Below are positions 114 to 26,372 of a stretch of DNA of 64,000 bases, piece by piece (within the stretch, counting starts at the first letter, position 1; every line of letters starts with the position of its first letter). The stretch spans positions 300,468 through 364,467 of the forward strand of contig JAGSHD010000001.1 of NCBI GenBank assembly GCA_023954715.1. Reading direction: 5' to 3'. Position numbers and translations under genes: made by a program. The notes under the pieces are model-generated. The model was not told the origin of the DNA. It ran no database searches and saw only the letters and a list, made by a program, of their open reading frames with translations. Source of the stretch: Candidatus Cloacimonadota bacterium. GTDB taxonomy: Bacteria; Muiribacteriota; UBA6191.

Positions 114-2291
114 TTATAGGTCGTAAAACGACTTATTGTCTTTAGCTAAAGACTTTAATAGTTCACATGGCTCGAATCTCTTACCATATTTTTGAGCCAA
201 AACATTCATTTTTTCAACAACGTTTGTAACTCCTACACTATCAGCATATTTCAATAAGCCACCATGAAATGGAGGGAACCCTGTTCCGTAAATCATAGCT
301 AAATCTAAATATGCTGGCTTTTCGATAACTTTTTCTTCTAGACATCTAGCAGCTTCATTAACCATAGTAAATACAAAACGATCTACCATTTCTTCTTTGG
401 TTATTGAATTCGATTTTTTAGCAGGTAAAAACTTTTGTACGCCTTCGTTAAATGTTCGAGATTTTCCTTTATGGATATAAATCCCTTTACCCATTTTCTT
501 ACCAAGTAAGCCACCTTCAACGATTTTACCTAAAAACTCTGGTACTCTCATTCGATCACCATAAGCTTCTTCTAGCAACTTAGCTACCTTATATCCAACA
601 TCTAATCCAACTTCATCAGCTAAAGTAAAAGGACCCATTGGCATACCAAACTTGTAGATAGTCTTATCGATTTCTTCAAGATCGCAACCTTCTTCTAAAA
701 GATACATTCCTTCGTTCATTGAAGGGATTAAGATTCGGTTTACTAAAAACCCTGCACAATCTCCAACTACGATTGGTGTTTTACCTAATTTTTTAACTAA
801 AGATACAAGTTTAGCAACGGACTCATCACTTGTTTTTTCACCACGAATAACTTCAACCAACGGCATTCTGTTTACTGGGTTAAAAAAGTGCATTCCGATG
901 AATCTTTCTGGGTGTTTCATTACTGATTGCATTTCAGAAATAGACAATGCAGAAGTATTTGAACAGATTAATGCATCGTTAGATACTTCACCTTCAAGCT
1001 CTTGAAGCACAGTTTTTTTGATTCCCATGTTTTCAACAATAGCTTCAACAACAACATCTGAACTCTTGAATCCTGAATAATCTAACGCACCAGAAATCTT
1101 GTGCATTTTCATATTTACTTGTGTTGGCTTTAGTTTACGCTTTTTTTGTAATACTTTATAGATATCTTGCGCTGCTTCAAATCCTTTAGAAACACCATCC
1201 CAATTAACATCTTTTAAACGTACAGGGATATCTTTGTAAGAAAACAACCAAGCGATTCCTCCACCCATAACTCCTGCACCTAATACAGCAGAATGATTTA
1301 CAGCTGGCACTTTGTAGTCATCAGGCATTTTAACACCAATATCTTTTTTTACTGCATCATCAGTGAAAAAGATATGTACTAAAGACTTAACAACACTTTT
1401 GTGTGTAGTCACAAGTTTAATAAAAGCTTCTGTTTCTCGTTTTAGGCCGTCTTTTAAAGACATACCATAAGTATCTTGTAATAAATCTAAGATAGCTAAA
1501 GGAGCTGGGTAGTGTCCTTTACTAGCTTTCATTACACCTTCTCTAGCTTTACTAAAAACAACATTTTTACCAAGAGGGTTTCCTTCTAATAAAAAGTTTT
1601 GTGTTGCTCCCATAAAACCTTTTGTAGTATTTCTTTTAGATAAGATCTTTTTCTTCTTTTTATCATCTAAAATTGTATCTACAAACTCAGCAATTTTTTC
1701 ATCGATAAACTCTGCTGCGATAATTGCATCAGCAATCTTCAACTTAAAAGCTTTTTTAGCATCAATCTTTTTACCTGTTAAAATCAAAGGCATAGCATTA
1801 ACTAAACCAATCAATTTAGGAAGTCTCTGCGTACCACCCCAACCTGGTAAAATACCAAGCATTACCTCTGGTAATCCAAGTGAAGTTTTCTTGTGATCTG
1901 TAACAACTCTATATGTACAAGCTAAAGACATCTCTAGTCCCCCACCCATACATGCTCCGTTAATAACAGCTACAGTAGGAAAAGGAAGGTTTTCTAGCTC
2001 AGTAAAAGTATTTACTCCACGAGTAATCAAATCTCTTGCTTCTTGAGATTGATCTCCCTCTTTATTTAGCATCTCTTGAATTTCTCCAACATCTGCTCCT
2101 GCGATAAAGATACCTTCTTTAGCACTCATTACTAATAAGACTTTAATTGATGTATTCGATTTTAACTCAGCGATCTTCTCACCTAATTCGATCATTACAT
2201 CTTTTGAGAATTTATTTACTTTTTCACCTGGAAGATCAAAAATTAATTTCGCAACTCCATTGTCATTTACTTCTATTTTAAATGCTGACAT
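114..2291 (-). CDS. fadB: Fatty acid oxidation complex alpha subunit (enoyl-CoA hydratase/isomerase plus 3-hydroxyacyl-CoA dehydrogenase, FadB/FadJ type). The start is reassigned to the ATG at 2289-2291 (MSAFKIEV...).
   Basis: The N-terminus has the crotonase fold (AGADV..., GxGG) and the C-terminus has the NAD-binding 3HCDH region (VLGAGVMGGGIA). The length is about 725 aa. GGAGG lies 7 nt upstream of the internal ATG. A TAATG overlap couples it to the upstream thiolase. The choice between fadB and fadJ paralogue is ambiguous. Confidence 0.9.
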   Translation of the reverse strand: MSAFKIEVNDNGVAKLIFDLPGEKVNKFSKDVMIELGEKIAELKSNTSIKVLLVMSAKEGIFIAGADVGEIQEMLNKEGDQSQEARDLITRGVNTFTELENLPFPTVAVINGACMGGGLEMSLACTYRVVTDHKKTSLGLPEVMLGILPGWGGTQRLPKLIGLVNAMPLILTGKKIDAKKAFKLKIADAIIAAEFIDEKIAEFVDTILDDKKKKKILSKRNTTKGFMGATQNFLLEGNPLGKNVVFSKAREGVMKASKGHYPAPLAILDLLQDTYGMSLKDGLKRETEAFIKLVTTHKSVVKSLVHIFFTDDAVKKDIGVKMPDDYKVPAVNHSAVLGAGVMGGGIAWLFSYKDIPVRLKDVNWDGVSKGFEAAQDIYKVLQKKRKLKPTQVNMKMHKISGALDYSGFKSSDVVVEAIVENMGIKKTVLQELEGEVSNDALICSNTSALSISEMQSVMKHPERFIGMHFFNPVNRMPLVEVIRGEKTSDESVAKLVSLVKKLGKTPIVVGDCAGFLVNRILIPSMNEGMYLLEEGCDLEEIDKTIYKFGMPMGPFTLADEVGLDVGYKVAKLLEEAYGDRMRVPEFLGKIVEGGLLGKKMGKGIYIHKGKSRTFNEGVQKFLPAKKSNSITKEEMVDRFVFTMVNEAARCLEEKVIEKPAYLDLAMIYGTGFPPFHGGLLKYADSVGVTNVVEKMNVLAQKYGKRFEPCELLKSLAKDNKSFYDL

Positions 2292-3586
2292 TATTCTGCC
2301 TCCAAAGTTAGAGCTGTTCCTTGACCGCCACCGATACAAAGAGTAACTAAACCATGTTGCTTTTTTCTTCTCTTTAATTCTTTTAGAGTATGGATAATTA
2401 GACGTGTTCCTGTTGCTCCAACTGGATGTCCTAAAGATATAGCTCCACCATTCACGTTTAGCTTATCTCTATCAACAACACCAATAGCATCAGCTCTACC
2501 TAAATATTTTTGACAATATTCTTTGGAAGCCATAGCTCTTTCGCAACCGATTACTTGAGCAGCAAATGCCTCGTTAATTTCAATCAAATCGAAATCTCCA
2601 AGTTGCTTGCCTGTTCGCTCTAAAATTTGTGAAGTAGCATATACAGGTCCAAGTCCCATTCTATCAGGAGCTAACCCAGCATAAGCATAATCAGTTAAAT
2701 AACCAATTGGAGTTAATCCCATTGCTTTTGCTTTAGACTCTCTCATAATGATCAGTCCAGCTGCACCATCTGTAATTTGTGAACAATTTGCTGGAGTTAC
2801 AGTACCAGCTAAACGATCAAAACAAGGTCGTAATTTTTGAAGACCTTTTAAATCTGTTCCGTTTCTAATTCCGTCATCTTCTGTTTGAACCGCTGTATAC
2901 TTTGGTCCAACAGGAATCGGTACGATCTCATCTTCAAAGATTCCGTTAGCTCGAGCTGCTTCTGCTCTGTTTTGACTCATCATAGCAAACTCATCTTGCT
3001 CAAGTCTTGAGATAGAAAAGTCTTTTGAAATCAACTCTGCTGTTTGTCCCATTTGTAAACTACATAATGGATCTAACAAACCAGGAATAACTGGTGCTAG
3101 AAAAGCTGGTCTAAATTTAGAGATAACATCTAATTTTGCTGATAAAGATTTAGCTTTACCAAGTCCCATAAAAATATCGATCATCTTTTTACCAAACAAA
3201 ATCGGAACATTACTCATAGACTCGCATCCACCAGCTAAAATTACATCCGCATATCCTGCTAAAATTTTGTTCATACCAGTAGTAACAGACTCCATACCAG
3301 AGGCACAGTTTCTATTTACAGTATATGAAGGGATTCGCTCAGGAACTCCTGCTTTTACCGCTAATATTCTTGTAAGGTTTGTTGATTGAGGTGGTTGTAT
3401 AACGTTACCAAAGATGATTTCATCTAAATCGTTTGCGTCAAAACCGGTTTTTGCTAACAACTCTTTTACCACGTGGGCACCTAAATCATCTGCTTGCATC
3501 TCACCAAGTACACCGGGTACTTTTGGGTTCGTTGATTTGCAAAATGGAGTTCTTACTCCATCAATAATTGCAATTCGTTCTGCCAT
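2291..3586 (-). CDS. fadA: 3-ketoacyl-CoA thiolase (acetyl-CoA acyltransferase, FadA/FadI type). The start is set at MAERIAIIDGVRTPF.
   Basis: A conserved thiolase N-terminus, an active-site Cys region (NRNCASGM) and a C-terminal GHPVGATG / CIGGGQG are present. AGGAGA lies 7 nt upstream of the ATG at 3584-3586. The upstream TTG/ATG extension lacks SD spacing. Confidence 0.9.
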   Translation of the reverse strand: MAERIAIIDGVRTPFCKSTNPKVPGVLGEMQADDLGAHVVKELLAKTGFDANDLDEIIFGNVIQPPQSTNLTRILAVKAGVPERIPSYTVNRNCASGMESVTTGMNKILAGYADVILAGGCESMSNVPILFGKKMIDIFMGLGKAKSLSAKLDVISKFRPAFLAPVIPGLLDPLCSLQMGQTAELISKDFSISRLEQDEFAMMSQNRAEAARANGIFEDEIVPIPVGPKYTAVQTEDDGIRNGTDLKGLQKLRPCFDRLAGTVTPANCSQITDGAAGLIIMRESKAKAMGLTPIGYLTDYAYAGLAPDRMGLGPVYATSQILERTGKQLGDFDLIEINEAFAAQVIGCERAMASKEYCQKYLGRADAIGVVDRDKLNVNGGAISLGHPVGATGTRLIIHTLKELKRRKKQHGLVTLCIGGGQGTALTLEAE

Positions 3587-3652
3587 TTTCATTCTCCTGC
3601 TTAGTTGTGATCCAAATGTATCCACAAACATCAAAACCCAATTGGTTTAAAT

Positions 3653-5437
3653 CTAGTTTGGCTCTGAATACATTGATTCTATTAATTTATTATATTTTTC
3701 TTCTATTACAAATCTTTTAATTTTCATTGTGGGAGTTAACTCACCACTTTCTATGGTTAAAGGAGTAACCACTAATCGAAATTTTCTAATTTGTTCCCAA
3801 TGGGACAAACCTCTATTTATGTTTTCGATATATTGTTGAATTTTTGCTTTTAAGTACTTACTCGCCACAAACTCTTCAACTCCTAAATCCGTCATTTTCT
3901 TTTTTCGTTTTAACTTTTCGATTTCTGCTAAATCCATAAATAAAAGACAAGATGGAAACTTACGACCTTCTGCAACCAGCATCGCAGATTCGATGTATTT
4001 ACTCTTTGTTAAATGTCTTTCAATGGATATGGGAGCTATATATTTCCCATTAGAGGTTTTAAAAATCTCTTTAATCCGTCCGACGATTCTTAGAAAGCCA
4101 TCATTATCAATTACACCTTTATCACCAGTGCGTAACCACCCATCAGGTAAAATTACATCACTAGTAGCCTCTGGGTTTTTATGATACCCACGCATCACAC
4201 TGTCAGACTTAGTCAATACTTCGCCACGCTCACTCAGTTTAATCTCTGTACCCTCTATGGCTTTACCTACAAACCCAATCTTATTAGAGCGTGGAGATGA
4301 GCTTGTGATTACAGGTGAAGACTCGGTTAAACCATATCCTTGAAAAACTGGCACCCCAATTTTTATAAAAAAGCTACAAATCCTTGGATTTAAAGCTGCT
4401 CCACCCAATATCAATGCCTTTAACTCTCCGCCAAGAGCAGCTCTAAATTTTGAGTAAACTAACCGATCAAAAATAGGTAAACACAGATAATAAAAAGGAT
4501 TGATTCGGTGATACGCTAATAAAAAAGCGATTCTAGCTAATCTTGCTTTAAAGCCTTTTTGAGATCGTATTTTTTTCTCCATGGCCTCATAAATTTTTTC
4601 AAGTAATCTAGGAACCATAGTCATCATATCTGGCTTAATCTCTTTGGCGTAATCAGCAGTCTTTTTTACATCATCTGCTATATATACATGAATATTCATA
4701 GCCAAATAGAAATATATAATCATCCGCTCAAAAGTGTGTGCTACCGGTAAACAAGAGATTGCAGTCTTTAAAACCAGATCTTCATGAAGAAGTTTTGATA
4801 CTGCTTTTACTTGGTGCAAGAGATTTTTGTGACTTAGTTCTACACCTTTTGGTAAACCTGTTGAACCACTAGTATAAATAATCGTTAACAAATCCTCAGC
4901 ATTACCGTTTTCTAACAACTTAGAATAGGCTGTTGGATCTTGAGAAAGAGACCGCTCTCCAAGAGTCATAACTTCAGAATATGAATTAATATTTAAGCCA
5001 GATTGAGGCTTTGCTGACTCTAAAGTGATTAGATCAGTTAAAGTACAATTTTCTAATGTAAATTCTTCAAAAAAAGCTTCATCTTCTACGACTAAATGAG
5101 AAACTTCCGCATGCTCCATTTGATGCTCAAACACTTCTTGAGATACATTGACAAAGACTGGGATATTGATAGCACCAATAGATAACAGAGCTAGATCGAA
5201 AAATACCCAATGTGCCGAAGATGGTATTAATAAAGCAACCCTATCTCCTGAGTTTATACCAAGCTTTGCTAGACCACAACTTAGACGTGTAACTTCTTGT
5301 TCTACGTCTGCTGATGAGTATGTTTTCCATTTGTTGCCTTCTCTAGAAGAAATTAACCGATCTGTGCCATGTTTGAAAATTACTTGGTTTAGTAAATCTT
5401 TCATTGTATCGCAATTTTGAAGTCGGTCTTGTAGCAC
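3653..5437 (-). CDS. Long-chain-fatty-acid--CoA ligase (AMP-dependent synthetase, FadD-like), probably with a GTG start.
   Basis: It has the AMP-binding motif YTSGSTGLPKGV, a PVAHTFER-like region, and GYGLTE...GEV. The codon at 5435-5437 is GTG, preceded by AGGAT with 6-nt spacing. An alternative ATG lies at 5402-5404. Confidence 0.85.
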   Translation of the reverse strand: MLQDRLQNCDTMKDLLNQVIFKHGTDRLISSREGNKWKTYSSADVEQEVTRLSCGLAKLGINSGDRVALLIPSSAHWVFFDLALLSIGAINIPVFVNVSQEVFEHQMEHAEVSHLVVEDEAFFEEFTLENCTLTDLITLESAKPQSGLNINSYSEVMTLGERSLSQDPTAYSKLLENGNAEDLLTIIYTSGSTGLPKGVELSHKNLLHQVKAVSKLLHEDLVLKTAISCLPVAHTFERMIIYFYLAMNIHVYIADDVKKTADYAKEIKPDMMTMVPRLLEKIYEAMEKKIRSQKGFKARLARIAFLLAYHRINPFYYLCLPIFDRLVYSKFRAALGGELKALILGGAALNPRICSFFIKIGVPVFQGYGLTESSPVITSSSPRSNKIGFVGKAIEGTEIKLSERGEVLTKSDSVMRGYHKNPEATSDVILPDGWLRTGDKGVIDNDGFLRIVGRIKEIFKTSNGKYIAPISIERHLTKSKYIESAMLVAEGRKFPSCLLFMDLAEIEKLKRKKKMTDLGVEEFVASKYLKAKIQQYIENINRGLSHWEQIRKFRLVVTPLTIESGELTPTMKIKRFVIEEKYNKLIESMYSEPN

Positions 5438-5493
5438 TCAATATCCTATGGGTCTAAAACAATTTATACAATGTTGTTTCTAGTATAAATTAA

Positions 5494-5553
5494 GTTAATT
5501 AACTAATCAGTTACATAATAAGTAACTAAATAGTTAACGTCAAGGATTAATCC
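5494..5553. promoter_or_regulatory. Cluster of TTAA-core palindromes upstream of the fad operon. These are GTTAATTAAC (5494-5503), AGTTAC-n7-GTAACT (5509-5527), GTTAAC (5532-5537) and GGATTAATCC (5544-5553). It is a candidate operator array.
   Basis: Four perfect or near-perfect inverted repeats with related half-sites sit within 60 bp of the 5' region of the fadD-fadA-fadB transcription unit. Confidence 0.3.
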
Positions 5554-5651
5554 ATAGAAAACTCGGTTATTTTTGTTAGTGACTACCAACAAATGGTATT
5601 CATTACAAAAGTTTTAGATTTTGTACTAAGCGGAACCAAAATTTTATACTA

Positions 5652-5690
5652 CAAAAAAGTCTCCAACTGATTGGATAGAGACTTTTTAAT
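5652..5690. terminator. Bidirectional rho-independent terminator. The stem is AGTCTC+CCAA / TTGG+GAGACT, flanked by an A-tract and a T-tract.
   Basis: The hairpin at 5658-5683 is preceded by AAAAAA and followed by TTTTTAATT. It lies about 90 nt downstream of the minus-strand gene ending at 5772. Confidence 0.6.
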
Positions 5691-5771
5691 TACTTTACTT
5701 GTCTGTTTGAAATATTCACAAAAGCTAAACCAATGTAAATTCAATCCTATGAATGGTTCATAGCTGACAGC

Positions 5772-7055
5772 CTACTTTTTATACAAACTATTAAAGTTTT
5801 CTGTTTTACTGTTTAGAGAGTATGCAACTTGAAAAAACTCTTTAAACCAAGGTAAATGTCGAAAACCATAATGTCCTCCATCTTCTAACAGAATAATATC
5901 TTTTCCACGTTTAGCATAGGCATTCCATAAAGCATCTGCATTTAAAAAATCATCTTCACAATTGATTACTCGAAAATGATCATAACCTGATTTTTTAGCC
6001 TGATTGATCCAATACAGCAAGTCTCCGTACTTTCCAACCAATTTCACTTTAGTTTCTGGGGCATAAACATCAAAAAATTTATGAAAGTTCATAGATCTTT
6101 TCCACTTTTTATATTTAGGAGATAATGACCCTAAAACTCCTCCAGGAATTGAATTCAAATTATTTACTTTATCAAAAACTTTGATAGATTTAATCAATTC
6201 ACTATGAAACCCCTGATAGACTGTTAAGCCCTGAGCTGTCTCGTAATGTTTTTCAGTTAATTCATTTTTCTTTTCAGCCTTGCAAAAGCTTTTATATCTC
6301 AACAATACGGATACTAAACTCATTCCCATAAAAGGCTCTTTACTCTCTAAAACCACTTGGTCTAAGCGATCTAAGGTTCGTCCAAAATTAAATGGTGCTG
6401 ATAATATTGTTGAATCGTAAAAACCAATTGGAGAGTCATTTTTTGCATCTAATGCACTAATAATTGCTGTTAAAAAAGATCCTGCACTCACACCAGCAAT
6501 TCTGATTTTGCTATGATCTACTAAGCCATCTTTATCTAGTCTAGTAATTGCTTGACGAAATGCAGAATAAATTGATTTCGCCTCTTCTTCTACATCACCT
6601 AACATAGCCTTAGGTTTAAGACCAACATAGTCTGTCCCCCATGGGTTGGGAGGAGAGATAACGTGATAACCTAGTCGAGTTCCTTCATCCATCCACTGTC
6701 TAGACTGCCCATTTTTTAAATTAGAAAAAGCACCCGGTATATAAAATAATACTGGTGCTTTTATTTTGTTTCCTTGGTCATCTTGCTGAAGTCCTACTCT
6801 TAAAGGCAGAGGCCCGTTTAAAAGAGATTCTACAGGCATTTCCCATTGCTCCACAGGAACAATCATATTTTTTTCTTTTGTTTTTGGCTTGTTACAAATA
6901 CTGCTCAAAGTTGCCACAAAACCATTTTGAAATGGATGACTATATTTTTCAGAGTGATCAATGACCTCTTGTGACCATCCCGCTGAAAAATTAACTGTCG
7001 TAAATAATAGACTAATAGCACCGTATAAAAGTGGTTTTGAAAGAACTTTCATCAT
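5772..7055 (-). CDS. Secreted alpha/beta-hydrolase (putative esterase/lipase) with an N-terminal signal peptide.
   Basis: A signal peptide (MMKVLSKPLLYGAISLLFTTVNFSAG) and the nucleophile elbow GVSAG (GxSxG) are present. A GGAG RBS precedes the start. Confidence 0.7.
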   Translation of the reverse strand: MMKVLSKPLLYGAISLLFTTVNFSAGWSQEVIDHSEKYSHPFQNGFVATLSSICNKPKTKEKNMIVPVEQWEMPVESLLNGPLPLRVGLQQDDQGNKIKAPVLFYIPGAFSNLKNGQSRQWMDEGTRLGYHVISPPNPWGTDYVGLKPKAMLGDVEEEAKSIYSAFRQAITRLDKDGLVDHSKIRIAGVSAGSFLTAIISALDAKNDSPIGFYDSTILSAPFNFGRTLDRLDQVVLESKEPFMGMSLVSVLLRYKSFCKAEKKNELTEKHYETAQGLTVYQGFHSELIKSIKVFDKVNNLNSIPGGVLGSLSPKYKKWKRSMNFHKFFDVYAPETKVKLVGKYGDLLYWINQAKKSGYDHFRVINCEDDFLNADALWNAYAKRGKDIILLEDGGHYGFRHLPWFKEFFQVAYSLNSKTENFNSLYKK

Positions 7056-7150
7056 GTATACATCTCCAAAAGATTTATTTAATAATAATTTTATGAATTA
7101 ATCTGTGTTAAATTGGCTCTAGGTTAAAATAAGATAAAAAGTAGGCACAT

Positions 7151-8263: not shown

Positions 8264-8564
8264 TAAATTCAAGCTTTTGTTTGCTGTAGTTTTAATCTTA
8301 TCCTACTTTGCTTGGGATGCGTATATCAATAGTACTTTTAAAAGAGTCATACCCGCATCTTTTGTCACCGAGTTTTGCTCCTGCTATTATGTTGAAAAAC
8401 AAAGTCAAAAACACTGTGAATGGTACTCATCACAAATCATCTCGGTAAGCGACTATCACATAGATGAAGATAAAAAAGCCATAACAGCACACGGACTCCA
8501 CGAAGAAGCCCTGGCAGTATTTAAAAATGATCGTTTGGGTTGTGTTTTGATGGAAGAAAAGTAG
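8250..8564 (+). CDS. Small hypothetical protein with an N-terminal hydrophobic segment and four Cys.
   Basis: The ORF overlaps the upstream gene by 14 nt, suggesting coupling, and is followed by a strong terminator. There is no family assignment. Confidence 0.4.
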   Translation: MIKNNKFKLLFAVVLILSYFAWDAYINSTFKRVIPASFVTEFCSCYYVEKQSQKHCEWYSSQIISVSDYHIDEDKKAITAHGLHEEALAVFKNDRLGCVLMEEK

Positions 8565-8581
8565 AGTCAAACCCTATAATC

Positions 8582-8620
8582 CAAAAAAAGACCACACCGC
8601 AAGGCATGGTCTTTTTTTTA
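8582..8620. terminator. Bidirectional rho-independent terminator with stem AAGACCA/TGGTCTT and an inner GCAA loop.
   Basis: The 7-bp stem at 8588-8594 / 8607-8613 is preceded by AAAAAAA and followed by TTTTTTTT. It lies between convergent genes. Confidence 0.65.
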
Positions 8621-8636
8621 GGTCGAAGATTTAATC

Positions 8637-10577: not shown

Positions 10578-13500
10578 TTAACTAAGCATCCCTTTTAAAG
10601 ACCTATAGTCAGTTTTACCTGTTCCTAACAATGGTATTTCTTCTACCTTGATAAACTTGTTGAGTCTACCAACATTAGAAAACCCTGCTTCTTTTAATAA
10701 GTTATTAGCTTCATCAAAGCTGATATCTAAAGTAGAGAACAAACACATAATGGGTCGTTCCCCATCAATTTCAAGTGCCTCAATAGCCACAAGTGGCCCT
10801 TCTTCACCTGCTGGCCATTGTTTTACAATTACAGACTCCATAGCTGGAATAGAAATCATCTCACCGGCAATTTTAACAAACCTCTTTAAACGACCAGCCA
10901 AAATTATATTGCCATTTTCGTCTAAAAACCCTAAATCACCTGTATTGTAATATGTTTGCCCTTCTACTTCTATAAATGGATTAGGTGGGTTTTCGCCGAT
11001 ATAGCCATTAAAGATATTATCCCCTTTTACTATAATTAGACCACGCTCGCCTTGAGATAAAATTGCTTTACTATCGATATCTACAATTTTTACTGTAACA
11101 GCATCAATAGGTTTACCCACGCCAGCTCTATCTATTCCAACTCGATTGGCACTAATGATTGGAGAGCATTCTGTGATTCCGTATCCTTCTATCAAAGATG
11201 AAGTTTCACAAGTATCTGATACTACTTTAAACAAAGCATCTGGTACTTTTTCTGCTCCAGCTACAATGTAACGGATACTTTGTAACTGCTCTCTTTCTCC
11301 AGCTTTATAAATTGCTGCTGCAAAAGATGGGGTTCCACAAATTATAGTGCTTTTCCAGGTGTTAATACCATAAGCCAATCTCTTAGCCTCCGTTGGATTT
11401 GCATAATACGATACTTTACATCCAGTGGTTAAAGGAAGGATCGTTGTAATGGTAAAGCCAAATGAATGAAATGGAGGTAAAAAACCATACATGGCATCAT
11501 CATGCTGAAACGGCATAATTTCAAAAGCACTAACAACATTTGACAATACATTTTTATGAGTAAGAGATACTCCTTTTGGCACAGTCTCTGACCCTGAAGT
11601 AAACAATACCACAGCTTCATCATCTTCATTAATCTCATCTAAATGATATTTAGCAATCAGACTTTTTGCCGGTTTTTTTGACTCTAATGCTGCTTTAATT
11701 TTTTCAAAAAGAGTAAACTCGTCTTTTCTTAGATCTTCTAAAAATACCAATCTATCTTCTAAGCAGCCTAAGTCTACTGAGCCAAGCTTATCAACAAACT
11801 TTAAGGATGAAATTACCACTTCGATTCCGGATACTTTTTGTACATGCTCTAGGTTTCTTGAACCCAAGGTCCAGTTTACCATTACAGGTACTTTACCTGC
11901 ATAATAACAAGCCATAGTTACTAATGCTGCCCCACAACTAGCAGGAAGCATCACACCAATACGTTTGTCTTCGATCTTTCTTAGATAAGATGCTATTAAT
12001 AATGCTGCCAACTTAGACTTTTTATTGGATAATACTCCAGAGTTGTCATCAGCCATACAAACATGAGAACCAAGTCGATCACAAGATAACATCATTGCTT
12101 CAGCCATGGTTTTAGCCAATGGTGGTAAAACATCAGGCCGCTTTTGAGTAGACTCCCAACCTTCTGGTGTTTTAGTTTCAAACTCTTCTTCTGACTCACC
12201 ACCAGTTGCTGCAATTACAACAACAGATGCCACCGTAGTAATGGTAGTCGCGTCAAAGTTATTTACTTCAAAAATGTCCTCAAGCCATATTAAAATCTCA
12301 GACCTATCCAATGAGTCTAATCCTAGATCATCATTAATATGATCATCTAAATTAATATCCTTTGGATCCTTATTTAACATTTTTGAAAATTCAAAGATGA
12401 CTTTTTCAACGATCTCTTGATCGATATTTGAAACATCAATCTCTTCTTTTTGTGCTTTTTCTAGAGTTTCTGGAAGCTCATTATACCACCTACAAAGAGA
12501 TACAGGCGCAATCTCTTGTCGAGTGCCTTGATTATAGTAATTTTCTAACCATTCATTTCTTTCATTTTTATCAGCATTATAAGGAAAGTCCGCTGGTGCT
12601 AGCTCCAAGTTAATATGAACAGGACGCTTAGGAACAAAAAATATTAAGTTTTTAGCCAAAATCTTAAGCACTCTTAAAAGCAATGGTCCAGGATCTGGTG
12701 TCACACCCGCTGTATGAGCAGTAGAGGATAATGATCCCCATAAACCAGTTGTCCTTGCTAAAACCACATTGATATTGGGATTAGACTTTAGAATAATATC
12801 TACTGCTGACGCCCCCTTCATATCCTCTACTCCGTTTCGCATTAAGCGACCGGCAGGATATAATAATACGTTTTCTCCATCCTCAAGACTTTGGGCAGTA
12901 TCACTAAAGACTTTATTCATTCTTTTTAATTTAAAATAGCTTGTGCCTTGATCCATGTCGGGTACGGGAATAGCATTTACAAAATTGAGTAATTGATTTA
13001 ACACCGGTAGAGTATAAAATGTCTCCGTAACTAAGGGGCGTATCTTAAAGTGTGATAATAAACCACTAGCCATAATCAAAGGATCTAACTCAGCTGGATG
13101 ATTTGGCATGATCAACATACCTTTTTTACCCTTTAAGTTTTCAAGACCACTAATACTCACTTTATAACGTAAATTAACGAGTTTTTTAATAATAAAAGCC
13201 AAAGCTCTAAGAGATAAATTATAACCCCTTTCACTATTAGGAAGAAGAGTGATTAAAGGTAAAATTGATGCGAAGATTACAGCTGCAATAAAGATAAATT
13301 GAGTTGTTTCATTCAATACTTGAAATTTTAATAAGCCGCCAATTACTAAACCAATAGAAAAACAAAAGAATGAAACCCAGGCACTTTGAAATGCTGCTCC
13401 AGTACCTTCTTTTTTCTCTTCTCCTACTAAGCGCAAATACTCGGAGTCAATCAAGTTTGCACATATACCAAATACAGCACCTAAAACTCCCATAAGTACA

Positions 13501-14450
13501 GCAGCAATGATGTATATATTATGGTTTTCTTCTAAAACTAAGGTAGGACCACATGCTTGTATAATAAATGGAAAAGCAAAAGTGATTGCAAAAAATATGA
13601 ATCCAGCCCCAAAAGCTGATACAAAACGTAAAGATTGAAATCTTGGAGCAAGTATTGACCCAATAATTATACCAATGGCTGCCCATAATGACATATATAC
13701 ACATTGTTCAGCCGTACCTAAATTTAATTTTTCACAATAAGCTGTAATAGCTAAACTAACTACACTTGAACAACCCCAAAGCATAGGTGCAGAAATCAAA
13801 TAGGCCCAATATCTAGTAAACAAATAAAAGGACTCTTCAACCAAAGTAGAAGAACTTTCTTTATACGATATTAAATCTTCATCTGGAAACTTTACCAATG
13901 AGCCAAAAATCCCTGCTAAAAGTAAAACTCCAGCCGCAATTTGAGCTCCTAATTCAGGATTGACTCTTTGATATTCTTCACCAAAGGTAACACCAGCAAT
14001 CATAGCCACAATCATTATTACTGTTAAGGTACTGTTTATTTGAATTGTAGACTTGTTACTAAATTTAGCTAGTAAAGGTACACTAGCCATTTTAGCTGAA
14101 TTATAAATTCCAATAAGTAATCCTACAAATCCTACGTAAAACCATGCTGTGAAAACCCACCCTGACAAATGCCCACCAAAAAACAAAATGGCAGACATTA
14201 ATCCAGTAGATAACATAATGATTCGTTTATTGGTTGATGCCGCTAAAGGTCCCGATACAAAAAATATTAGAGTGGGTCCTAAAGTAAAAATGGACGCTAC
14301 AAATTGAATAATCCATTCTTTCTCCGCAGCGATCTGCTCTGGTATTCCGTTACCAGCAACAAAGGCAATATGTCCTACAATGTAGAACTTGATAAAGCCC
14401 ATTCCAAAACTAGCAAAAAATGTAGCTAGTATTAAATAAAAAAACATCAT
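10578..14450 (-). CDS. Four-domain fusion protein of 1290 aa. The N-terminus is an LplT-like MFS lysophospholipid transporter. It is followed by a PlsC-type acyltransferase (2-acyl-GPE acyltransferase-like), an embedded acyl-carrier/PP-binding domain, and a C-terminal AMP-binding acyl-ACP/CoA synthetase (Aas-like).
   Basis: There are about 12 hydrophobic TM segments in the first ~400 aa. The HX4D motif NHPAELD lies at 13091-13111. The PP-binding motif DDLGLDSLDRSEIL lies at about 12300-12340. The adenylation motif FTSGSETVPKG lies at about 11565-11600, with YGITE and GDLG downstream. GGAG lies 8 nt upstream of ATGATG. Confidence 0.85.
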   Translation of the reverse strand: MMFFYLILATFFASFGMGFIKFYIVGHIAFVAGNGIPEQIAAEKEWIIQFVASIFTLGPTLIFFVSGPLAASTNKRIIMLSTGLMSAILFFGGHLSGWVFTAWFYVGFVGLLIGIYNSAKMASVPLLAKFSNKSTIQINSTLTVIMIVAMIAGVTFGEEYQRVNPELGAQIAAGVLLLAGIFGSLVKFPDEDLISYKESSSTLVEESFYLFTRYWAYLISAPMLWGCSSVVSLAITAYCEKLNLGTAEQCVYMSLWAAIGIIIGSILAPRFQSLRFVSAFGAGFIFFAITFAFPFIIQACGPTLVLEENHNIYIIAAVLMGVLGAVFGICANLIDSEYLRLVGEEKKEGTGAAFQSAWVSFFCFSIGLVIGGLLKFQVLNETTQFIFIAAVIFASILPLITLLPNSERGYNLSLRALAFIIKKLVNLRYKVSISGLENLKGKKGMLIMPNHPAELDPLIMASGLLSHFKIRPLVTETFYTLPVLNQLLNFVNAIPVPDMDQGTSYFKLKRMNKVFSDTAQSLEDGENVLLYPAGRLMRNGVEDMKGASAVDIILKSNPNINVVLARTTGLWGSLSSTAHTAGVTPDPGPLLLRVLKILAKNLIFFVPKRPVHINLELAPADFPYNADKNERNEWLENYYNQGTRQEIAPVSLCRWYNELPETLEKAQKEEIDVSNIDQEIVEKVIFEFSKMLNKDPKDINLDDHINDDLGLDSLDRSEILIWLEDIFEVNNFDATTITTVASVVVIAATGGESEEEFETKTPEGWESTQKRPDVLPPLAKTMAEAMMLSCDRLGSHVCMADDNSGVLSNKKSKLAALLIASYLRKIEDKRIGVMLPASCGAALVTMACYYAGKVPVMVNWTLGSRNLEHVQKVSGIEVVISSLKFVDKLGSVDLGCLEDRLVFLEDLRKDEFTLFEKIKAALESKKPAKSLIAKYHLDEINEDDEAVVLFTSGSETVPKGVSLTHKNVLSNVVSAFEIMPFQHDDAMYGFLPPFHSFGFTITTILPLTTGCKVSYYANPTEAKRLAYGINTWKSTIICGTPSFAAAIYKAGEREQLQSIRYIVAGAEKVPDALFKVVSDTCETSSLIEGYGITECSPIISANRVGIDRAGVGKPIDAVTVKIVDIDSKAILSQGERGLIIVKGDNIFNGYIGENPPNPFIEVEGQTYYNTGDLGFLDENGNIILAGRLKRFVKIAGEMISIPAMESVIVKQWPAGEEGPLVAIEALEIDGERPIMCLFSTLDISFDEANNLLKEAGFSNVGRLNKFIKVEEIPLLGTGKTDYRSLKGMLS

Positions 14451-14503
14451 ATATACTCCTATAAGGATATTGAGTATTAAGTACTCTAGTTCACTTTATT
14501 GTG

Positions 14504-15085
14504 TTATGACTGATCTTCTTTGATTCCGATCAATTCAAATAATAACTCCATCTGATTTTTTTGAAAACCATTGCTTGCCAAATAAGATATGGGAAGCAAT
14601 TGCATGATACCAAGACCTAGGCCCCAATGTACTAGTGCCCAAGATAAACTCTGCGCATTAGATTGAAAGTCGGATAATAGTTGCTCAAGTAGCTCAGCAA
14701 ATTTTTCAAAAGTGATCGATAACTGATGTTGGATCTGACTTGAGTTATTTTGAACTACCAATTTTTGCAATAACATAAACTCAGAACTCTTATCACTTGG
14801 AGTACAAGTAAAGTTTTTGGTTATGATTTGCAAGGCACATTTAGAGTCTTTAGTACTCTTTATCAAGTCTGACCATTTGGCTAATTGTTTTTCACGAGCT
14901 GATTCTATACAACTTAGTATAATATCTTCTTTTTTTTTGAAGCAACGATATAAAATCATCTCTTTAACATTAAGTTGTTGAGATAACTCTTTTGTCGTCA
15001 AAGCGGAAACTCCACCCAGAGCTATAATCTCAGTTGCTTTAGCTACAATTTGAATTTTTCTATCTGCTGTTTTTATTCTTGTCAT
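14504..15085 (-). CDS. TetR-family transcriptional regulator.
   Basis: An N-terminal HTH (ATEIIALGGVSALTTKELSQQLNVKEMILYRCFKKKEDI) is typical of the TetR/AcrR family. The length is about 190 aa. The gene is co-oriented with and lies 53 bp upstream of the lipid fusion gene. Confidence 0.75.
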   Translation of the reverse strand: MTRIKTADRKIQIVAKATEIIALGGVSALTTKELSQQLNVKEMILYRCFKKKEDIILSCIESAREKQLAKWSDLIKSTKDSKCALQIITKNFTCTPSDKSSEFMLLQKLVVQNNSSQIQHQLSITFEKFAELLEQLLSDFQSNAQSLSWALVHWGLGLGIMQLLPISYLASNGFQKNQMELLFELIGIKEDQS

Positions 15086-15091
15086 ATATAG

Positions 15092-15111
15092 ATGTTAGTA
15101 AGGACTAACAT
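15092..15111. promoter_or_regulatory. 20-bp palindrome ATGTTAGT-AAGG-ACTAACAT, 7 bp upstream of the tetR start codon. It is a candidate autoregulatory operator.
   Basis: Perfect 8-bp arms abut the TetR translation start, the classical position for TetR-family operators. Confidence 0.4.
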
Positions 15112-15338: not shown

Positions 15339-15839
15339 TTATATTTTTGGATTGGACTGAACTTGAAACTGCTTACTGAATCTTAAGTGATCCTCAGCAA
15401 GTTTTTGTTCGATGACTTTTGTAATCAAGGATTGAAAAAGTTTAGCAAACATGCCGTCTACCTGATACTCTACTTGAGTTTCTACAATGGATTTTTTATT
15501 AGCTTCGACGATAGTTGTACTAAAAGACCCCCGAATTCCTTTTAACGAAAACTCTCCCGAATGTTTGTCGCTATCATAGGAGTAGTCGATTTGCTCTTGT
15601 CGCTCTAAAAGACTTAAAACGCCTTGTCCTTGCTTAGACTTTTCATCAAATTTCAAAGATACAAAACCATCGATCAAGTTGTACTCTAAGGGTGGTTTAG
15701 CAATAAAGGTATTAACATTAACTTTGGATTGATCTATCTCTACACTAAGTACAAATTGATCTTTACCATCCATAAAATAAACCACAATCAATAAAACTAT
15801 AGATGCTGTTACTAAAATTGAAAATATTTTTTTTGCCAT
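15339..15839 (-). CDS. Hypothetical membrane-anchored protein, encoded 14 bp downstream of the patatin autotransporter gene.
   Basis: An N-terminal TM helix (ILVTASIVLLIVVYF) is followed by a soluble ~140-aa domain. There is no confident family assignment. A lipid-binding SRPBCC-like fold is a guess only. Confidence 0.5.
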   Translation of the reverse strand: MAKKIFSILVTASIVLLIVVYFMDGKDQFVLSVEIDQSKVNVNTFIAKPPLEYNLIDGFVSLKFDEKSKQGQGVLSLLERQEQIDYSYDSDKHSGEFSLKGIRGSFSTTIVEANKKSIVETQVEYQVDGMFAKLFQSLITKVIEQKLAEDHLRFSKQFQVQSNPKI

Positions 15840-15853
15840 AAAACTATACTCTT

Positions 15854-18025
15854 TTAAAATGAATATCCTATAGATACAAAACTACTCATATGATGACCGT
15901 TATGAAACACACTAAACTCAAGTGGACCAGCTTTAGTTAATTTAGCTAGAGTGATTCCACCAGATTTATTCATGGCAGAAAAAGAGTCTACATCAGCCTT
16001 AGTATAGCCTGTACTACCAACATTATACCTCAATAATACATAAGTGTTGGCTAATAGTTCATATTGAGCACCAACCATAGCACTTTGCAGGTAGTTTCCA
16101 CCATTAGAGTGTCTATCAAATCCATACAAAGTGGACATATCATAGAAGTTTCCGTATCCACCTTGAGCAAAAGCTGACTGTACACTCAGCTTCTTACCAT
16201 CTAAGTGCCCTCTCTTGTATGCAGTGAGAAGACTAAAACGGCTATTTAAAGGTGTTACTTTAAACAATGAGATTATCTTCTTAACATACTCTGAATCATT
16301 ATTTAAATCACTTGCTGCCCAACTAATTTCAAAATCATATTTCTCCCCTGATTTTGGAAAGTAGGTAGAATCTAAAGAGTCATAATTAACTGCACTATAC
16401 AATAAAGTTTCGTGTTCTTTTTTATTTAATTTTACAATTGCTTTGTTTTCATCTAGCCAATTATTTGCCAGTTTTAAACCAGAACGAATCGAAAAGTTAT
16501 TTTCTAAGATCGATCCTAGAGTAACATCCAATTGAAGTCTCTTATAATCTAACTCATTGATAGGCTTAGTAAGTTTGTCAAAATTAAAATATAGCTCTTC
16601 TTGGTATAATGCTTGTATTCGTAAAGCAGATAAGTGCTTTTTATGATTATTTAAATAAACGATACTTTGAGCTTTAAAGCTGTTTTTATTTCCTAGTTTC
16701 ATATCAAACAACAACTGTGAAATATTTTTTGAAAACTGATTTACCGTAGTATTGATTAAGGCCTCTGTTCTACCATGACGATCATATCTCAATCCAAAGT
16801 TAAATGATCCGCTGTCCTTTTCTTTAACTTTTACCACAAGAGTCTGACCATCGATCTGATAAGATACTAATTCAAAAAATAATGACCGATAGATTTTAGA
16901 GATGGCTGCTGAAATATCTTTTTCAGAAAACTCTGAGGGTAATTTTAATCCAGCTTCTCTTATCACAAATGAAGTAGGAACCTTTGCATTACCTTCTACC
17001 TTTATACTTATAATTTTAGCTTTCAAATCATGATCTGCTAAACATTTAGGTCTTCTTCTCAAGGAGACTTTAGCAGCTTTTAAAAGTGATTTAATTTCAG
17101 GGAGAGCTTTTCTAGCAGCATCTTCTCCCATTTTTATCCAATCCTCAATACGATCAAAGTTTTTAGCTGACATTTCAAGTACATTGGGTCGAATCAATAC
17201 ATCACAAAGAGCTCTTTGTTTATCATTATTTTTAGTATTGGTAAAACTTACCGTTTGATCCATAATAGCTACTAAATTATCAAGCTTTTCGGCCTTATGT
17301 AGCTTAGATCCAACGTCAACACCAATTACAATATCAGCACCCATTTCGATAACGTCTTTTACAGGAAAGTTCCGTACCATCATTCCATCAGCTAATAATT
17401 TGCCTTTATAACGTTTTGGTGTAAATGCATTTGGCAAGCCAATACTTGCTCTCATAGCCTCGGGTAGATTACCAGAAGTAATTGTTACCGCATCACCACT
17501 CTCAAGATCTGTTGTAATAGCAGCAAATGGTATTTTAAATTTAGAAAAGTCTCTTACATTATGATATGGCCATGCACTTGTTGCTAATACGGACTCCATT
17601 CGTTGTCCAGCTACTAAACCACTTGGTAAGTTTATATGCCCATCCCTAAAAGGAAGACTCACTACATACCTATCTAGCTGATCTTTTTGCTCCATAGAAA
17701 CAGCATTTCTTTTTGGTTTGTCATCTAATAAATAGTCCCAATTTTGCTTTAGAAGTTTCTCTTCAAGCTCCAATGCTGTACAACCTACTGAGTATAATCC
17801 CCCAATAACAGATCCCATGCTCGTTCCTGAGATAAGGTCCACTGGAATACCTTCTTCTTCAAAGACTTTTAAGACTCCAAGATGAGCGAACCCTTTAGCA
17901 GCACCACCACTTAAGGCTAAGCCAACTTTAATCGGATTTACTTTGTGGTAATCAACACTTGCTTCATTTTCTGAATAATTTAATTGTATTAAGCTAATAA
18001 ATAGAAAAACATAAAATATTTTCAA
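15854..18025 (-). CDS. Patatin-like phospholipase fused to a C-terminal outer-membrane beta-barrel (type Vd autotransporter, PlpD-like).
   Basis: A signal peptide, the oxyanion GGAAKG, the nucleophile GTSMG (GxSxG) and the Asp motif ADGMM are present. A ~400-aa C-terminal region has alternating amphipathic strands and ends in SIGYSF, an aromatic terminal residue typical of OM barrels. Confidence 0.8.
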   Translation of the reverse strand: MKIFYVFLFISLIQLNYSENEASVDYHKVNPIKVGLALSGGAAKGFAHLGVLKVFEEEGIPVDLISGTSMGSVIGGLYSVGCTALELEEKLLKQNWDYLLDDKPKRNAVSMEQKDQLDRYVVSLPFRDGHINLPSGLVAGQRMESVLATSAWPYHNVRDFSKFKIPFAAITTDLESGDAVTITSGNLPEAMRASIGLPNAFTPKRYKGKLLADGMMVRNFPVKDVIEMGADIVIGVDVGSKLHKAEKLDNLVAIMDQTVSFTNTKNNDKQRALCDVLIRPNVLEMSAKNFDRIEDWIKMGEDAARKALPEIKSLLKAAKVSLRRRPKCLADHDLKAKIISIKVEGNAKVPTSFVIREAGLKLPSEFSEKDISAAISKIYRSLFFELVSYQIDGQTLVVKVKEKDSGSFNFGLRYDRHGRTEALINTTVNQFSKNISQLLFDMKLGNKNSFKAQSIVYLNNHKKHLSALRIQALYQEELYFNFDKLTKPINELDYKRLQLDVTLGSILENNFSIRSGLKLANNWLDENKAIVKLNKKEHETLLYSAVNYDSLDSTYFPKSGEKYDFEISWAASDLNNDSEYVKKIISLFKVTPLNSRFSLLTAYKRGHLDGKKLSVQSAFAQGGYGNFYDMSTLYGFDRHSNGGNYLQSAMVGAQYELLANTYVLLRYNVGSTGYTKADVDSFSAMNKSGGITLAKLTKAGPLEFSVFHNGHHMSSFVSIGYSF

Positions 18026-18236: not shown

Positions 18237-18791
18237 TTATTTTTCAGATTTTAGAAAAAATCCAAAGCAGGCACCACAAAATCCTCCAAGGATATGTGCA
18301 AATTGAGATACGTTGTCAGGTTTTAATGAATTTACGACTTCTTCACCAACATATAAAACTGCGATCAATAAAAAAGTTAAAGGAATCTCTCCATCTTTGA
18401 AATTAGATAAAGACCCCAGTAAAATCATCATAAATACAATTCCACTCGCACCATAAGCTCCTGTGTCCAATAGTGCTATATTTAAAATAGACGTAAAAAT
18501 AGCTGTAGCAAAAATCATTTGCCCTAAGGACCAAGAACCGTATTTTTCTTCTAACAGGGGGCCAATCAACAAAATTAATGAGAAATTTCCGATCAGATGA
18601 GCCCAATTTGCATGACCAAAAATATTAGAGATCATTCGAAAATAGTCTAATGGATCTGAAAAGTTCATTTGTCCACCAACTACAAAAAATGCCCTAGTGT
18701 AAATACCATTGGTAAAATGACTTAGGGCCATTACAGCAATACTTATAAAAGTAAAGGTCAACACGACCGGTGCATTATATTTTATTCTCAT
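18237..18791 (-). CDS. Rhomboid-family intramembrane serine protease.
   Basis: It has six TM segments. The HANWAHLIGN motif, the catalytic GASGIVF (GxSG) and the downstream FAHILGG His are present. Confidence 0.75.
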   Translation of the reverse strand: MRIKYNAPVVLTFTFISIAVMALSHFTNGIYTRAFFVVGGQMNFSDPLDYFRMISNIFGHANWAHLIGNFSLILLIGPLLEEKYGSWSLGQMIFATAIFTSILNIALLDTGAYGASGIVFMMILLGSLSNFKDGEIPLTFLLIAVLYVGEEVVNSLKPDNVSQFAHILGGFCGACFGFFLKSEK

Positions 18792-18801
18792 AATCGAAAC
18801 C

Positions 18802-19455
18802 TTATACTATTAATGATCCTAAATCCATATTAGCTACTTCATTAAAATTGCTTATAACTAATTTAGCTGCTGTTAGGTTTTGTTCTCCATTAACTCCATT
18901 TAAATAGGCTACACTATACATTCCTGCTTCATTTGCAGCATTAATGCCATGGGTAGAGTCTTCAAAAACGATACAATCTTTGGCTTCAACTTTTAATAAA
19001 TCTCTTGTGTAATTATAAATTGCTGGATCTGGTTTTCCTACACCATTAACATGATCTGCACTTACTATCTCTTGAAAGTACTCATCTAAGCCAAAACGTT
19101 TAACGACGATATCTATACACAACATAGGACTAGAAGAAGCCAAAGCAATTTTATGACCCTTAGATTTAAGATACTTTAGTAAATCCATAAATCCAGGCAT
19201 TAAGCCTACTTCTTTAGCATATATATCAACTGCCATTTCTTCATTCATGGATAAAAATGTATCTAATGGCATATCAAGACCAAAATCGTTTACTAAAGTT
19301 GAGTACATTTCAGGTACACTCATCCCTGTAATTTTACCATAATCTTTTATATCCCAGTTTTTGATATACTTACTAAGTAACTCGCCCTCATGCTCTAGCC
19401 ACTTCTCTTCACTATCTATAATTGTTCCGTCCATATCAAAAATAATTGTTTTCAT
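18802..19455 (-). CDS. HAD-superfamily hydrolase (subfamily IA, beta-phosphoglucomutase/phosphatase-like).
   Basis: The DMDGTIIDSE motif I is present, with conserved K and DD motifs downstream. The length is about 217 aa. Confidence 0.8.
   Translation of the reverse strand: MKTIIFDMDGTIIDSEEKWLEHEGELLSKYIKNWDIKDYGKITGMSVPEMYSTLVNDFGLDMPLDTFLSMNEEMAVDIYAKEVGLMPGFMDLLKYLKSKGHKIALASSSPMLCIDIVVKRFGLDEYFQEIVSADHVNGVGKPDPAIYNYTRDLLKVEAKDCIVFEDSTHGINAANEAGMYSVAYLNGVNGEQNLTAAKLVISNFNEVANMDLGSLIV

Positions 19456-23243: not shown

Positions 23244-26372
<3,129 letters not shown>

Follow-up and report, generated by a model that had tools for sequence, protein, structure and literature searches.

In Escherichia coli, the lysophospholipid transporter LplT and the acyltransferase/synthetase Aas form a complex (PMC6167442, PMC11416262), and Aas does not release acyl carrier protein in its acylated form (acyl-ACP), whereas AasC of the split chlamydial system does (PMC6167442). 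Fusions of LplT and Aas in a single open reading frame (ORF) are uncharacterised (PMC11416262). Our study examined a 64-kb stretch of the genome of a Candidatus Cloacimonadota bacterium (contig JAGSHD010000001.1, positions 300468 to 364467), which is referred to here in its full length as the window, and within it a 19-kb interval (114-19455) that encodes a 1290-aa protein of LplT/Aas type with a predicted ACP domain of its own, a TetR-family regulator, a β-oxidation (fad) operon and four hydrolases. A first-pass annotation had read this interval as a single lipid-harvesting neighbourhood; the genes that it named were borne out in the places where it had put them, and the motifs that were checked in the hydrolases, the acyltransferase and the carrier domain were intact. 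The reading towards which we lean, with somewhat better than even confidence, is that at least eight transcription units lie side by side in the interval in a lineage-specific arrangement, not as one module, and that it contains a functionally linked core formed by the TetR regulator, a carrier-tethered re-acylation enzyme and the β-oxidation operon.

The fusion gene (10578-14450, minus strand) encodes four domains in the order MFS, PlsC, ACP and acyl-ACP synthetase (AAS), for which Pfam reported MFS_1, Acyltransferase, PP-binding and AMP-binding. Residues 1-400 (13251-14450, minus) make up the MFS domain (MFS_1, E 1.7e-5) and hold 11 of the 12 transmembrane-like segments that a hydrophobicity scan found in the whole protein. 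The PlsC-type acyltransferase domain (residues ~431-641; 12528-13160, minus) scored 38 bits with Pfam Acyltransferase against a cutoff of 23, and its NHxxxxD motif (N450, H451 and D456) was invariant in 13/13 aligned sequences. The adenylate-forming domain at the C-terminus (residues ~780-1290; 10578-12113, minus) is of the acyl-ACP-synthetase type, as the NCBIfam models for Aas and AasC matched it best: the fusion scored 499 bits with PRK08633, 412 with PRK06334, 335 with PRK06814 and 249 with PRK08043, compared to 184 for the best acyl-CoA ligase model. The core motifs of this adenylating domain were also invariant in the alignment.

An insert of ~170 residues separates the acyltransferase from the adenylating domain, and members of this family are 1276-1304 aa long, compared to 1133-1157 aa for the classic LplT-Aas fusions. 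Within the insert, residues ~678-750 (12201-12419, minus) matched Pfam PP-binding at 24.5 bits (cutoff 20.8) and the acyl_carrier model TIGR00517 at E 1e-9, and they aligned with Thermus and mitochondrial ACP structures in the Protein Data Bank (PDB; E 7e-7 to ~1e-6) on the serine of the DSL motif. This serine, Ser713 (codon 12312-12314), lies in the sequence DLGLDSLD and was invariant in 9/9 aligned four-domain members, whereas an ACP domain in cis is absent from the four classic LplT-Aas fusions in the alignment. An AlphaFold (AF2) model of residues 417-1290 (pLDDT 81) places the start of helix II at Ser713 (model residue 297), as in real ACPs. From these sequence features we infer that the insert is a type-II-like ACP domain and that Ser713 is a candidate for phosphopantetheinylation. 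The description of the protein as an LplT/Aas-type fusion in the first-pass annotation is upheld for the domain order and the Aas-type synthetase, but the likeness to LplT is weak and the ACP domain had been overlooked.

A HMMER search with the PlsC and ACP part of the protein retrieved 307 cluster representatives (clusters at 50 % identity) at E <= 1e-30. Among the top 150 of these, ~25 had four domains and most of the others three, with lengths of ~880-920 aa. The family was found in environmental Chlamydiota, Lentisphaeria (Lentisphaerota), Verrucomicrobia (Verrucomicrobiota), metagenome-assembled genomes (MAGs) labelled as Bdellovibrionota and several candidate phyla. Full-text literature searches of the library searchable by us returned no description of a carrier-containing Aas or LplT-Aas, which is no proof of novelty. 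In two genomes from rumen or jejunum (loci L017 and L046, 10001-15413), the match to the fusion spanned 5.4 kb compared to 3.9 kb, which suggests a variant of still greater size or the insertion of a segment.

Among the species-representative genomes, the nearest was the MAG NORP72, whose fusion protein is 79 % identical to that of the window. The NORP72 genome (4.6 Mb) comes from an oxic subseafloor aquifer and carries genes for flagella, cytochrome c oxidase and nitrate reductase, and its authors suspect that it belongs to a separate class or even phylum (bioRxiv 10.1101/2021.10.08.463351). It is represented in our comparison by loci L001 and L007, which cover the fusion region, and by L087, the scaffold with the fad operon.

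Directly upstream of the fusion gene lies a gene for a TetR-family regulator (14504-15085, minus; Pfam TetR_N 29 bits, cutoff 24). The two genes are 53 nt apart in the window and overlap by 4 nt in NORP72, and they are probably co-transcribed. The best PDB match of the regulator was FadR of Bacillus subtilis (3whb/1vi0, E 6e-7), and its NCBIfam matches were FadR of Bacillus (1.7e-7) and the mycobacterial FasR (1e-5), all of them TetR proteins that respond to fatty acids. A perfect 8-4-8 palindrome, ATGTTAGT-aagg-ACTAACAT (15092-15111), overlaps the -10 element of the tetR promoter (TTGACA-17-TAACAT) and is a candidate operator for the regulator, with a core of 14 bases, TGTTAGT-N4-ACTAACA. When at most one mismatch was allowed, this core was seen at exactly two sites in the window, compared to 0.04 expected. 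The second copy, TTGTTAGTgactACCAACAA (5573-5592; core 5574-5591), differs from the core by one mismatch and is found ~30 nt upstream of the -35 element of the predicted fadD promoter. At the NORP72 tetR site both half-sites are kept and the spacer differs; in the NORP72 fadD leader (L087, 9336-9353) the aligned sequence reads TGTTGGT-N4-ACTCACA, and its placement with respect to a conserved -35 element is unchanged. Both sites are therefore kept in NORP72, although the tetR-fusion and fad operons lie on different scaffolds there. A candidate operator shared by tetR and fadD, and retained at both in the sister genome, suggests a FadR-like regulon, in which the TetR protein is predicted from the sequence to repress both the tetR-fusion and the fadD operons.

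A search for the operator upstream of the genes for the patatin, lipase, alpha/beta-hydrolase, beta-lactamase-fold and HAD proteins gave only matches with three mismatches, which were rejected as being at chance level (6 expected). Apart from the NORP72 copies, no match to the operator was seen in the remaining loci. The fadD leader also holds a perfect 12-bp palindrome, AGTTAATTAACT (5493-5504), within a block (5480-5515) that NORP72 shares almost unchanged; this palindrome is perhaps a further regulatory site, and no other good copy of it was found in the window.

The fad operon itself lies on the minus strand and forms a co-oriented run of ligase, thiolase, hydratase/dehydrogenase and acyl-CoA dehydrogenase (ACAD) genes. 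It opens with a fadD-like long-chain fatty acid-CoA ligase (3653-5437; Pfam AMP-binding and AMP-binding_C_3), followed by a fadA/fadI-like 3-ketoacyl-CoA thiolase (2291-3634; Thiolase_N/C, and TIGR01930 at 449 bits with a cutoff of 240) and a fadB/fadJ-like enoyl-CoA hydratase/3-hydroxyacyl-CoA dehydrogenase (114-2339; ECH_1, 3HCDH_N and 3HCDH), the true start of which is probably an ATG near 2291. The fadB-like protein scored 730 bits with the NCBIfam FadJ model, under the cutoff of 869, and the equivalog cutoffs for FadJ, FadB and FadI were all unreached by the window proteins. The operon had been taken to be complete with these three genes, which are indeed present, but it continues past the start of the window into a fourth, fadE-like ACAD gene, of which the N-terminal 15 codons are visible (1-47, minus). 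A minus-strand ATG at 47-45 opens the peptide MSEENKKNEEDVELV, in which 13 of the 15 residues are those of the ACAD (647 aa) encoded after fadB in NORP72 (L087). Between fadB and the ACAD gene, a scan for terminator-like structures picked up a GC-rich hairpin (87-105), which could be an intercistronic stem-loop or a weak terminator. The gene order in NORP72 is identical (fadD, fadA, fadB, ACAD), on the other scaffold and beside GmrSD and GH77 genes. The NORP72 fadD (L087, 9480-11263) is split into ORFs of 127 and 420 aa by a frameshift, as a pseudogene or through an assembly error.

Read from domain content, motifs, synteny and the occurrence and conservation of the operator, the core would work in two coupled arms. 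In the first, the MFS domain of the fusion may flip lysophospholipid to the cytoplasmic face of the membrane, a role for which the similarity to LplT is weak. The C-terminal adenylate-forming domain would activate free fatty acid and load it onto the protein's own ACP domain, phosphopantetheinylated at Ser713, from which the PlsC domain (HX4D) would pass the acyl chain to the lysophospholipid. This would be the E. coli LplT/Aas cycle with its carrier tethered in cis, so that acyl-ACP would be channelled and never released. In the second arm, the products of fadD, fadA, fadB and the ACAD gene would burn surplus fatty acid. The local FadR-like TetR would repress both arms through TGTTAGT-N4-ACTAACA and might be released by acyl-CoA or fatty acid, and this release would couple the re-use of acyl chains to their catabolism. 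The adjoining PlpD-like patatin/Omp85 protein, described below, could supply both lysophospholipid and fatty acid, from a lipid that may belong to the cell itself, as in turnover or repair of the envelope, or may be exogenous.

Several results weigh against a linked core of this kind. For the MFS part, the Pfam MFS_1 score was 24 bits, under the cutoff of 33, and the sole NCBIfam match was the LplT model PRK11195, at E 3e-4 and 19.9 bits against a cutoff of 297. The whole fusion also scored under the curated equivalog cutoffs (PRK08633, 499 versus 1221 bits; PRK06814, 335 versus 1349). The regulator gave its best NCBIfam match with FadR, yet with a score of 31 bits where the cutoff is 200. The fadD copy of the operator sits upstream of the predicted -35 element and not over the promoter, and its counterpart in NORP72 has two mismatches. 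The adjacency of the patatin and fusion genes was seen in two sister genomes only, and in 44 loci of Chlamydia type the homologue lies among housekeeping genes; when the neighbours in 80 loci were clustered, those that recurred in the Chlamydia-type loci were CysS, LysS, NUDIX, FabF, RsfS, BioY and PriA, and not lipases.

For a comparison of the wider neighbourhood, every protein of the window was searched by tblastn in 86 loci. NORP72 (L001/L007) keeps the series from an alanine symporter gene through HAD, rhomboid, patatin/Omp85, a 169-aa ORF and TetR to the fusion, at 51-86 % protein identity, and further along it has genes for a 100-aa protein, a beta-lactamase-fold protein and a 426-aa protein. 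After the alpha/beta-hydrolase gene of NORP72 come genes for MauE and a methyltransferase in place of fad genes. The check across related genomes that had been proposed for the cluster thus gave a divided result, as the block is partly kept in NORP72, but without the lipase and with the fad operon on a scaffold of its own. Homologues of the four-domain fusion at 37-49 % identity had unrelated neighbours. In the 80 further loci with fusion homologues the neighbours were unrelated, save for a TetR gene upstream of the fusion in three (L015, L010 and L011) and, in one (L073), all of ACAD-ECH-FadD-FadA-FadB next to a homologue with three domains; in addition, one Parachlamydiaceae locus gave a weak tblastn match to the patatin protein. 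In L073, an Lnb_N-domain gene (5442-6455) separates this fad cluster from the three-domain Aas homologue. Lnb_N is the periplasmic domain of an alternative lipoprotein N-acyltransferase, which would generate lysophospholipid.

This fast decay of synteny is what would be expected if the units were independent and had come together by chance or history, sharing nothing other than the label 'lipid', with the second palindrome a coincidence. Part of the block is found in the sister genome only, the fusion homologues have unrelated neighbours in nearly all of the 80 loci, and the strand co-orientation is not significant at the level of units. However, with 0.04 sites expected, the additional copy is located in the promoter region of fadD and is kept at the orthologous place in NORP72, L073 provides a separate case of Aas-fad adjacency, and the pairing of TetR with the fusion is found in four lineages (NORP72, L015, L010 and L011). 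We therefore consider mere juxtaposition to be unlikely, and prefer the linked core within a juxtaposition of otherwise separate units.

A further step, which we regard as possible but put at somewhat less than even, would be that the fusion founds a so far undescribed family of re-acylation enzymes that are self-contained, in four- and three-domain forms, in which the acyl chain never leaves the polypeptide, and that in this lineage the fusion and β-oxidation belong as two arms to a single FadR-like TetR regulon that decides between re-use and burning. What is new here is confined to the ACP-containing variant of LplT-Aas and the predicted shared operator.

From the gaps between genes, promoter-like sites and hairpins that resemble terminators, at least eight transcription units were predicted on both strands of the interval. 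The first is the fad operon, fadD-fadA-fadB(-ACAD), and the second the alpha/beta-hydrolase gene alone, both on the minus strand. Divergent from the latter is unit 3 (7151-8564, plus), with the beta-lactamase-fold gene and a 104-aa ORF, followed by unit 4 (8637-9299, minus), a 220-aa ORF. Unit 5 is the class-3 lipase gene (9505-10530, plus) with its own promoter-like site, and unit 6 comprises tetR and the fusion (10578-15085, minus). A strong bidirectional terminator with a 20-bp stem (10532-10575) lies between the convergent lipase and fusion genes. Unit 7 (15339-18025, minus) holds the patatin/Omp85 gene and a 166-aa ORF, and unit 8 (18237-19455, minus) the HAD and rhomboid genes. Nearly all genes had been described as lying on the minus strand, which is true of 11/14 genes, but of only 6/8 predicted units, which is not significant; strand co-orientation was rejected as evidence for an operon, as 6/8 units on one strand is uninformative. 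Four of the ~8 units are lipid-related, compared to a background of ~4 % (a rough estimate), and the enrichment of lipid genes in this genome looks real, beyond chance.

The patatin/Omp85 gene (15854-18025, minus) encodes a PlpD-like protein in which Pfam Patatin (93 bits), POTRA, Omp85_2 and Omp85 were all above their cutoffs. The motifs GGAAKG, GTS69MG and LLADG, which include the Ser-Asp dyad and a glycine-rich oxyanion loop, could be read from its sequence, and its passenger matched the PlpD structure 5fqu at E 1.5e-61. Downstream lies its partner gene, for a 166-aa protein anchored at the N-terminus (15339-15839, minus), and the pair is kept in NORP72 at 77 % and 51 % identity, respectively. 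The patatin/Omp85 protein probably yields lysophospholipid and fatty acid in the periplasm. The patatin domain of PlpD, the prototype, is periplasmic, where it acts on endogenous lipids (PMC11116518), and turnover or repair of the envelope is for this reason at least as likely a role as lipid harvest.

The exported class-3 lipase (9505-10530, plus) matched Pfam Lipase_3 at 73.9 bits (cutoff 22) and has the motif GHSLG with Ser160; it aligns with Rhizopus/Rhizomucor lipases (1lgy) over the catalytic Ser, Asp and His. The gene is absent from the NORP72 locus (L001/L007), as is that for the 220-aa exported protein (8637-9299, minus), which had no family match. Together they occupy a variable slot that lies between the fusion gene and the unit of small ORF and beta-lactamase-fold gene, as the lipase and the 220-aa acidic protein in the window (8637-10530) are replaced by an S41 peptidase in L001 (14006-15502), and the class-3 lipase is an accessory gene of this slot.

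The alpha/beta-hydrolase (5772-7055, minus) is an exported 427-aa protein with a large helical insert, the motif GVSAG and the triad Ser190/Asp369/His395. It had no Pfam match and no significant sequence match in the PDB, and an alignment showed that 15 homologues keep Ser190 (in GxSxG), Asp369 and His395. The top Foldseek matches of its AF2 model (pLDDT 88.3) were HSL-family esterases (E ~1e-9), at low TM-scores (~0.4 by query length and 0.4-0.6 by target length) that are due to the large helical insert. The divergently transcribed beta-lactamase-fold serine hydrolase (370 aa; 7151-8263, plus) matched Pfam Beta-lactamase at E 1e-35 and has the SxxK motif; in the PDB it matched 8rlj, a class C beta-lactamase-related serine hydrolase (E 2.5e-25), and the nylon-oligomer hydrolase NylB (1e-15). 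Its gene is overlapped by a 104-aa membrane-anchored ORF (8250-8564, plus). This divergent trio of hydrolase, beta-lactamase-fold protein and a membrane ORF of 92-115 aa was seen in the window (5772-8564), in NORP72 (L001, 15532-18292) and in L088 (6480-9290; also L089) and L090 (6584-9239). Outside NORP72, the trio has identities of 53 % and 37 %, and the genomes concerned (L088-L090) have no lipid genes nearby, which indicates an independent three-gene module.

All four hydrolases have signal-peptide-like N-termini, although that of the beta-lactamase-fold protein is without a positive n-region; these calls come from a hydrophobicity check and inspection, not from a dedicated predictor. The description of all four as secreted hydrolases with lipase or esterase signatures agrees with their signal-like N-termini and with their triads and motifs, and no evidence of a lipid substrate was seen for two of them, the 427-aa protein and the beta-lactamase-fold protein.

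On these grounds, it is very unlikely that one co-regulated module unites the fusion and the fad operon with all four of the exported hydrolases for the harvest of prey or environmental lipid, as the first-pass annotation had proposed. All of the gene families do occur inside 19 kb, the exported enzymes have signal-like N-termini, a chain from lipolysis through uptake to re-acylation or β-oxidation is biochemically coherent and plausible, and two units are linked by the operator shared between tetR and fadD. However, one module is not supported: the interval holds at least eight units, each preceded by promoter-like sites, and lipase and fusion are separated by a strong terminator, the four hydrolase promoters are without the operator, and neither the lipase nor the fad operon is linked to the fusion in NORP72. 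The pair of alpha/beta-hydrolase and beta-lactamase-fold protein recurs away from lipid genes in L088-L090, two of the 'lipases' have no assigned substrate, and the patatin domain of the PlpD type is periplasmic in its prototype. No sign for or against predation was seen in the window, and NORP72 is an aquifer MAG with flagellar and cytochrome c oxidase genes; the idea of prey-lipid recycling is speculation. Least probable of all is that the four-domain protein makes or exports another acylated product (an N-acyl amino acid, an ornithine-type lipid or a lipid-anchored molecule), with its carrier used as in FAAL-ACP-acyltransferase systems, since the barely LplT-like MFS domain, family scores that all fall well under equivalog cutoffs, weak matches of the PlsC-like region to the lipid acyltransferases OlsF and GlsA and the typical occurrence of tethered carriers in biosynthetic assembly lines are set against a domain order and best family matches of LplT-Aas (PRK08633, PRK06814 and PRK08043) and chlamydial AasC, an ACP of the type-II fatty acid synthase kind and not a peptidyl carrier protein, a three-domain form that is widespread in Chlamydiota, where the split LpaT/AasC does this job (PMC6167442), and the link to a FadR-like regulator and the fad operon. 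The linked core of regulator, carrier-tethered enzyme and β-oxidation operon remains our preferred reading.

The last unit of the interval pairs a rhomboid intramembrane protease (18237-18791, minus) with a HAD-family hydrolase similar to β-phosphoglucomutase and sugar phosphatases (18802-19455, minus). Both genes are kept in NORP72, and the pair gave no evidence of a lipid role and may be unrelated to the lipid core. Intramembrane proteases were seen near the four-domain fusion in separate lineages, which may be chance: the rhomboid lies two units from the fusion in the window and in NORP72, L003 has a 403-aa rhomboid (7633-8844) 1.1 kb upstream of the fusion, and an Rce1-like CAAX protease lies between TetR and the fusion in L010 (9302-9988) and L011 (9334-9978). 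Small exported or membrane ORFs number three in the interval (104, 220 and 166 aa).

The window as a whole has a GC content of ~34 % and resembles ordinary chromosome, encoding outside the interval the ribosomal proteins S9 and L13, BipA, fumarase, succinyl-CoA ligase, DsbD and ABC transporters. An Rfam scan of the entire window gave zero matches. A 1032-aa ORF with collagen triple-helix repeats (23244-26342) coincides with the sole rise in GC (0.41 versus ~0.34), an operon of an ABC ATPase, an ABC-2 permease and a GldG-like ABC_transp_aux protein (36643-40169) resembles the gliding-associated transporters of the gldAFG type, and three large neighbouring ORFs (738, 545 and 436 aa; 52889-58867) had no Pfam match.

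A neighbourhood of lipases is by itself ordinary genome annotation, and the significance of this locus lies with its core. A natural LplT-Aas with the carrier built in would be a clean system in which to study the coupling, at the membrane, of the activation of fatty acids, the shuttling of the carrier and the acylation of lysophospholipid. Relatives of the fusion with three domains are frequent among environmental chlamydiae and other bacteria of the PVC group, where the scavenging of host or environmental lipid matters. The predicted shared operator provides a testable link from membrane re-acylation to β-oxidation; if it is true, a single TetR regulon would decide whether scavenged acyl chains are re-used in the membrane or burned.

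Compared to known systems, the class-3 lipase, the 427-aa protein and the beta-lactamase-fold protein share the folds and catalytic residues of fungal and bacterial class-3 lipases, HSL-family (family IV) esterases and family VIII/NylB-like hydrolases, respectively, although the 427-aa family differs from HSL esterases in being without a Pfam model, in its large helical insert and in its low TM-scores. The patatin protein resembles PlpD of Pseudomonas aeruginosa and FplA of Fusobacterium (type Vd) in its signal-peptide-like N-terminus, its patatin GxSxG and DG dyad, its one POTRA domain and its Omp85 barrel. Unlike these, its gene is followed by a conserved 166-aa membrane-anchored ORF and adjoins a TetR-fusion operon in two sister genomes. 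Like FadR/YsiA of B. subtilis and PsrA of P. aeruginosa, the window regulator is a small TetR protein encoded beside lipid genes, with a predicted palindrome in its own promoter and in that of fad genes. In contrast to FadR and PsrA, its operator sequence is its own, and an Aas-type re-acylation enzyme is predicted as a second target beside the fad genes.

The fusion protein shares with E. coli LplT/Aas and with the single-ORF LplT-Aas fusions (PRK08633/PRK06814) the order of MFS domain, PlsC-type HX4D acyltransferase and C-terminal synthetase, and the chemistry expected by analogy would likewise be an ATP-dependent re-acylation of imported lysophospholipid with channelled acyl-ACP. It differs from LplT/Aas in carrying its ACP in cis in place of a soluble ACP, from the classic LplT-Aas fusions in being 30-32 % identical over ~40 % of its length, and from LplT-Aas in being paired with a TetR gene. 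With LpaT (CT775) and AasC (CT776) of Chlamydia trachomatis it shares an adenylating domain of the AasC type (PRK06334, 412 bits), and its three-domain relatives of the PlsC-ACP-AAS form are abundant in environmental Chlamydiota. C. trachomatis has two separate proteins, and its AasC releases acyl-ACP to the cell (PMC6167442), whereas in the window a single polypeptide is predicted to include both activities and the carrier, an arrangement that implies strict channelling.

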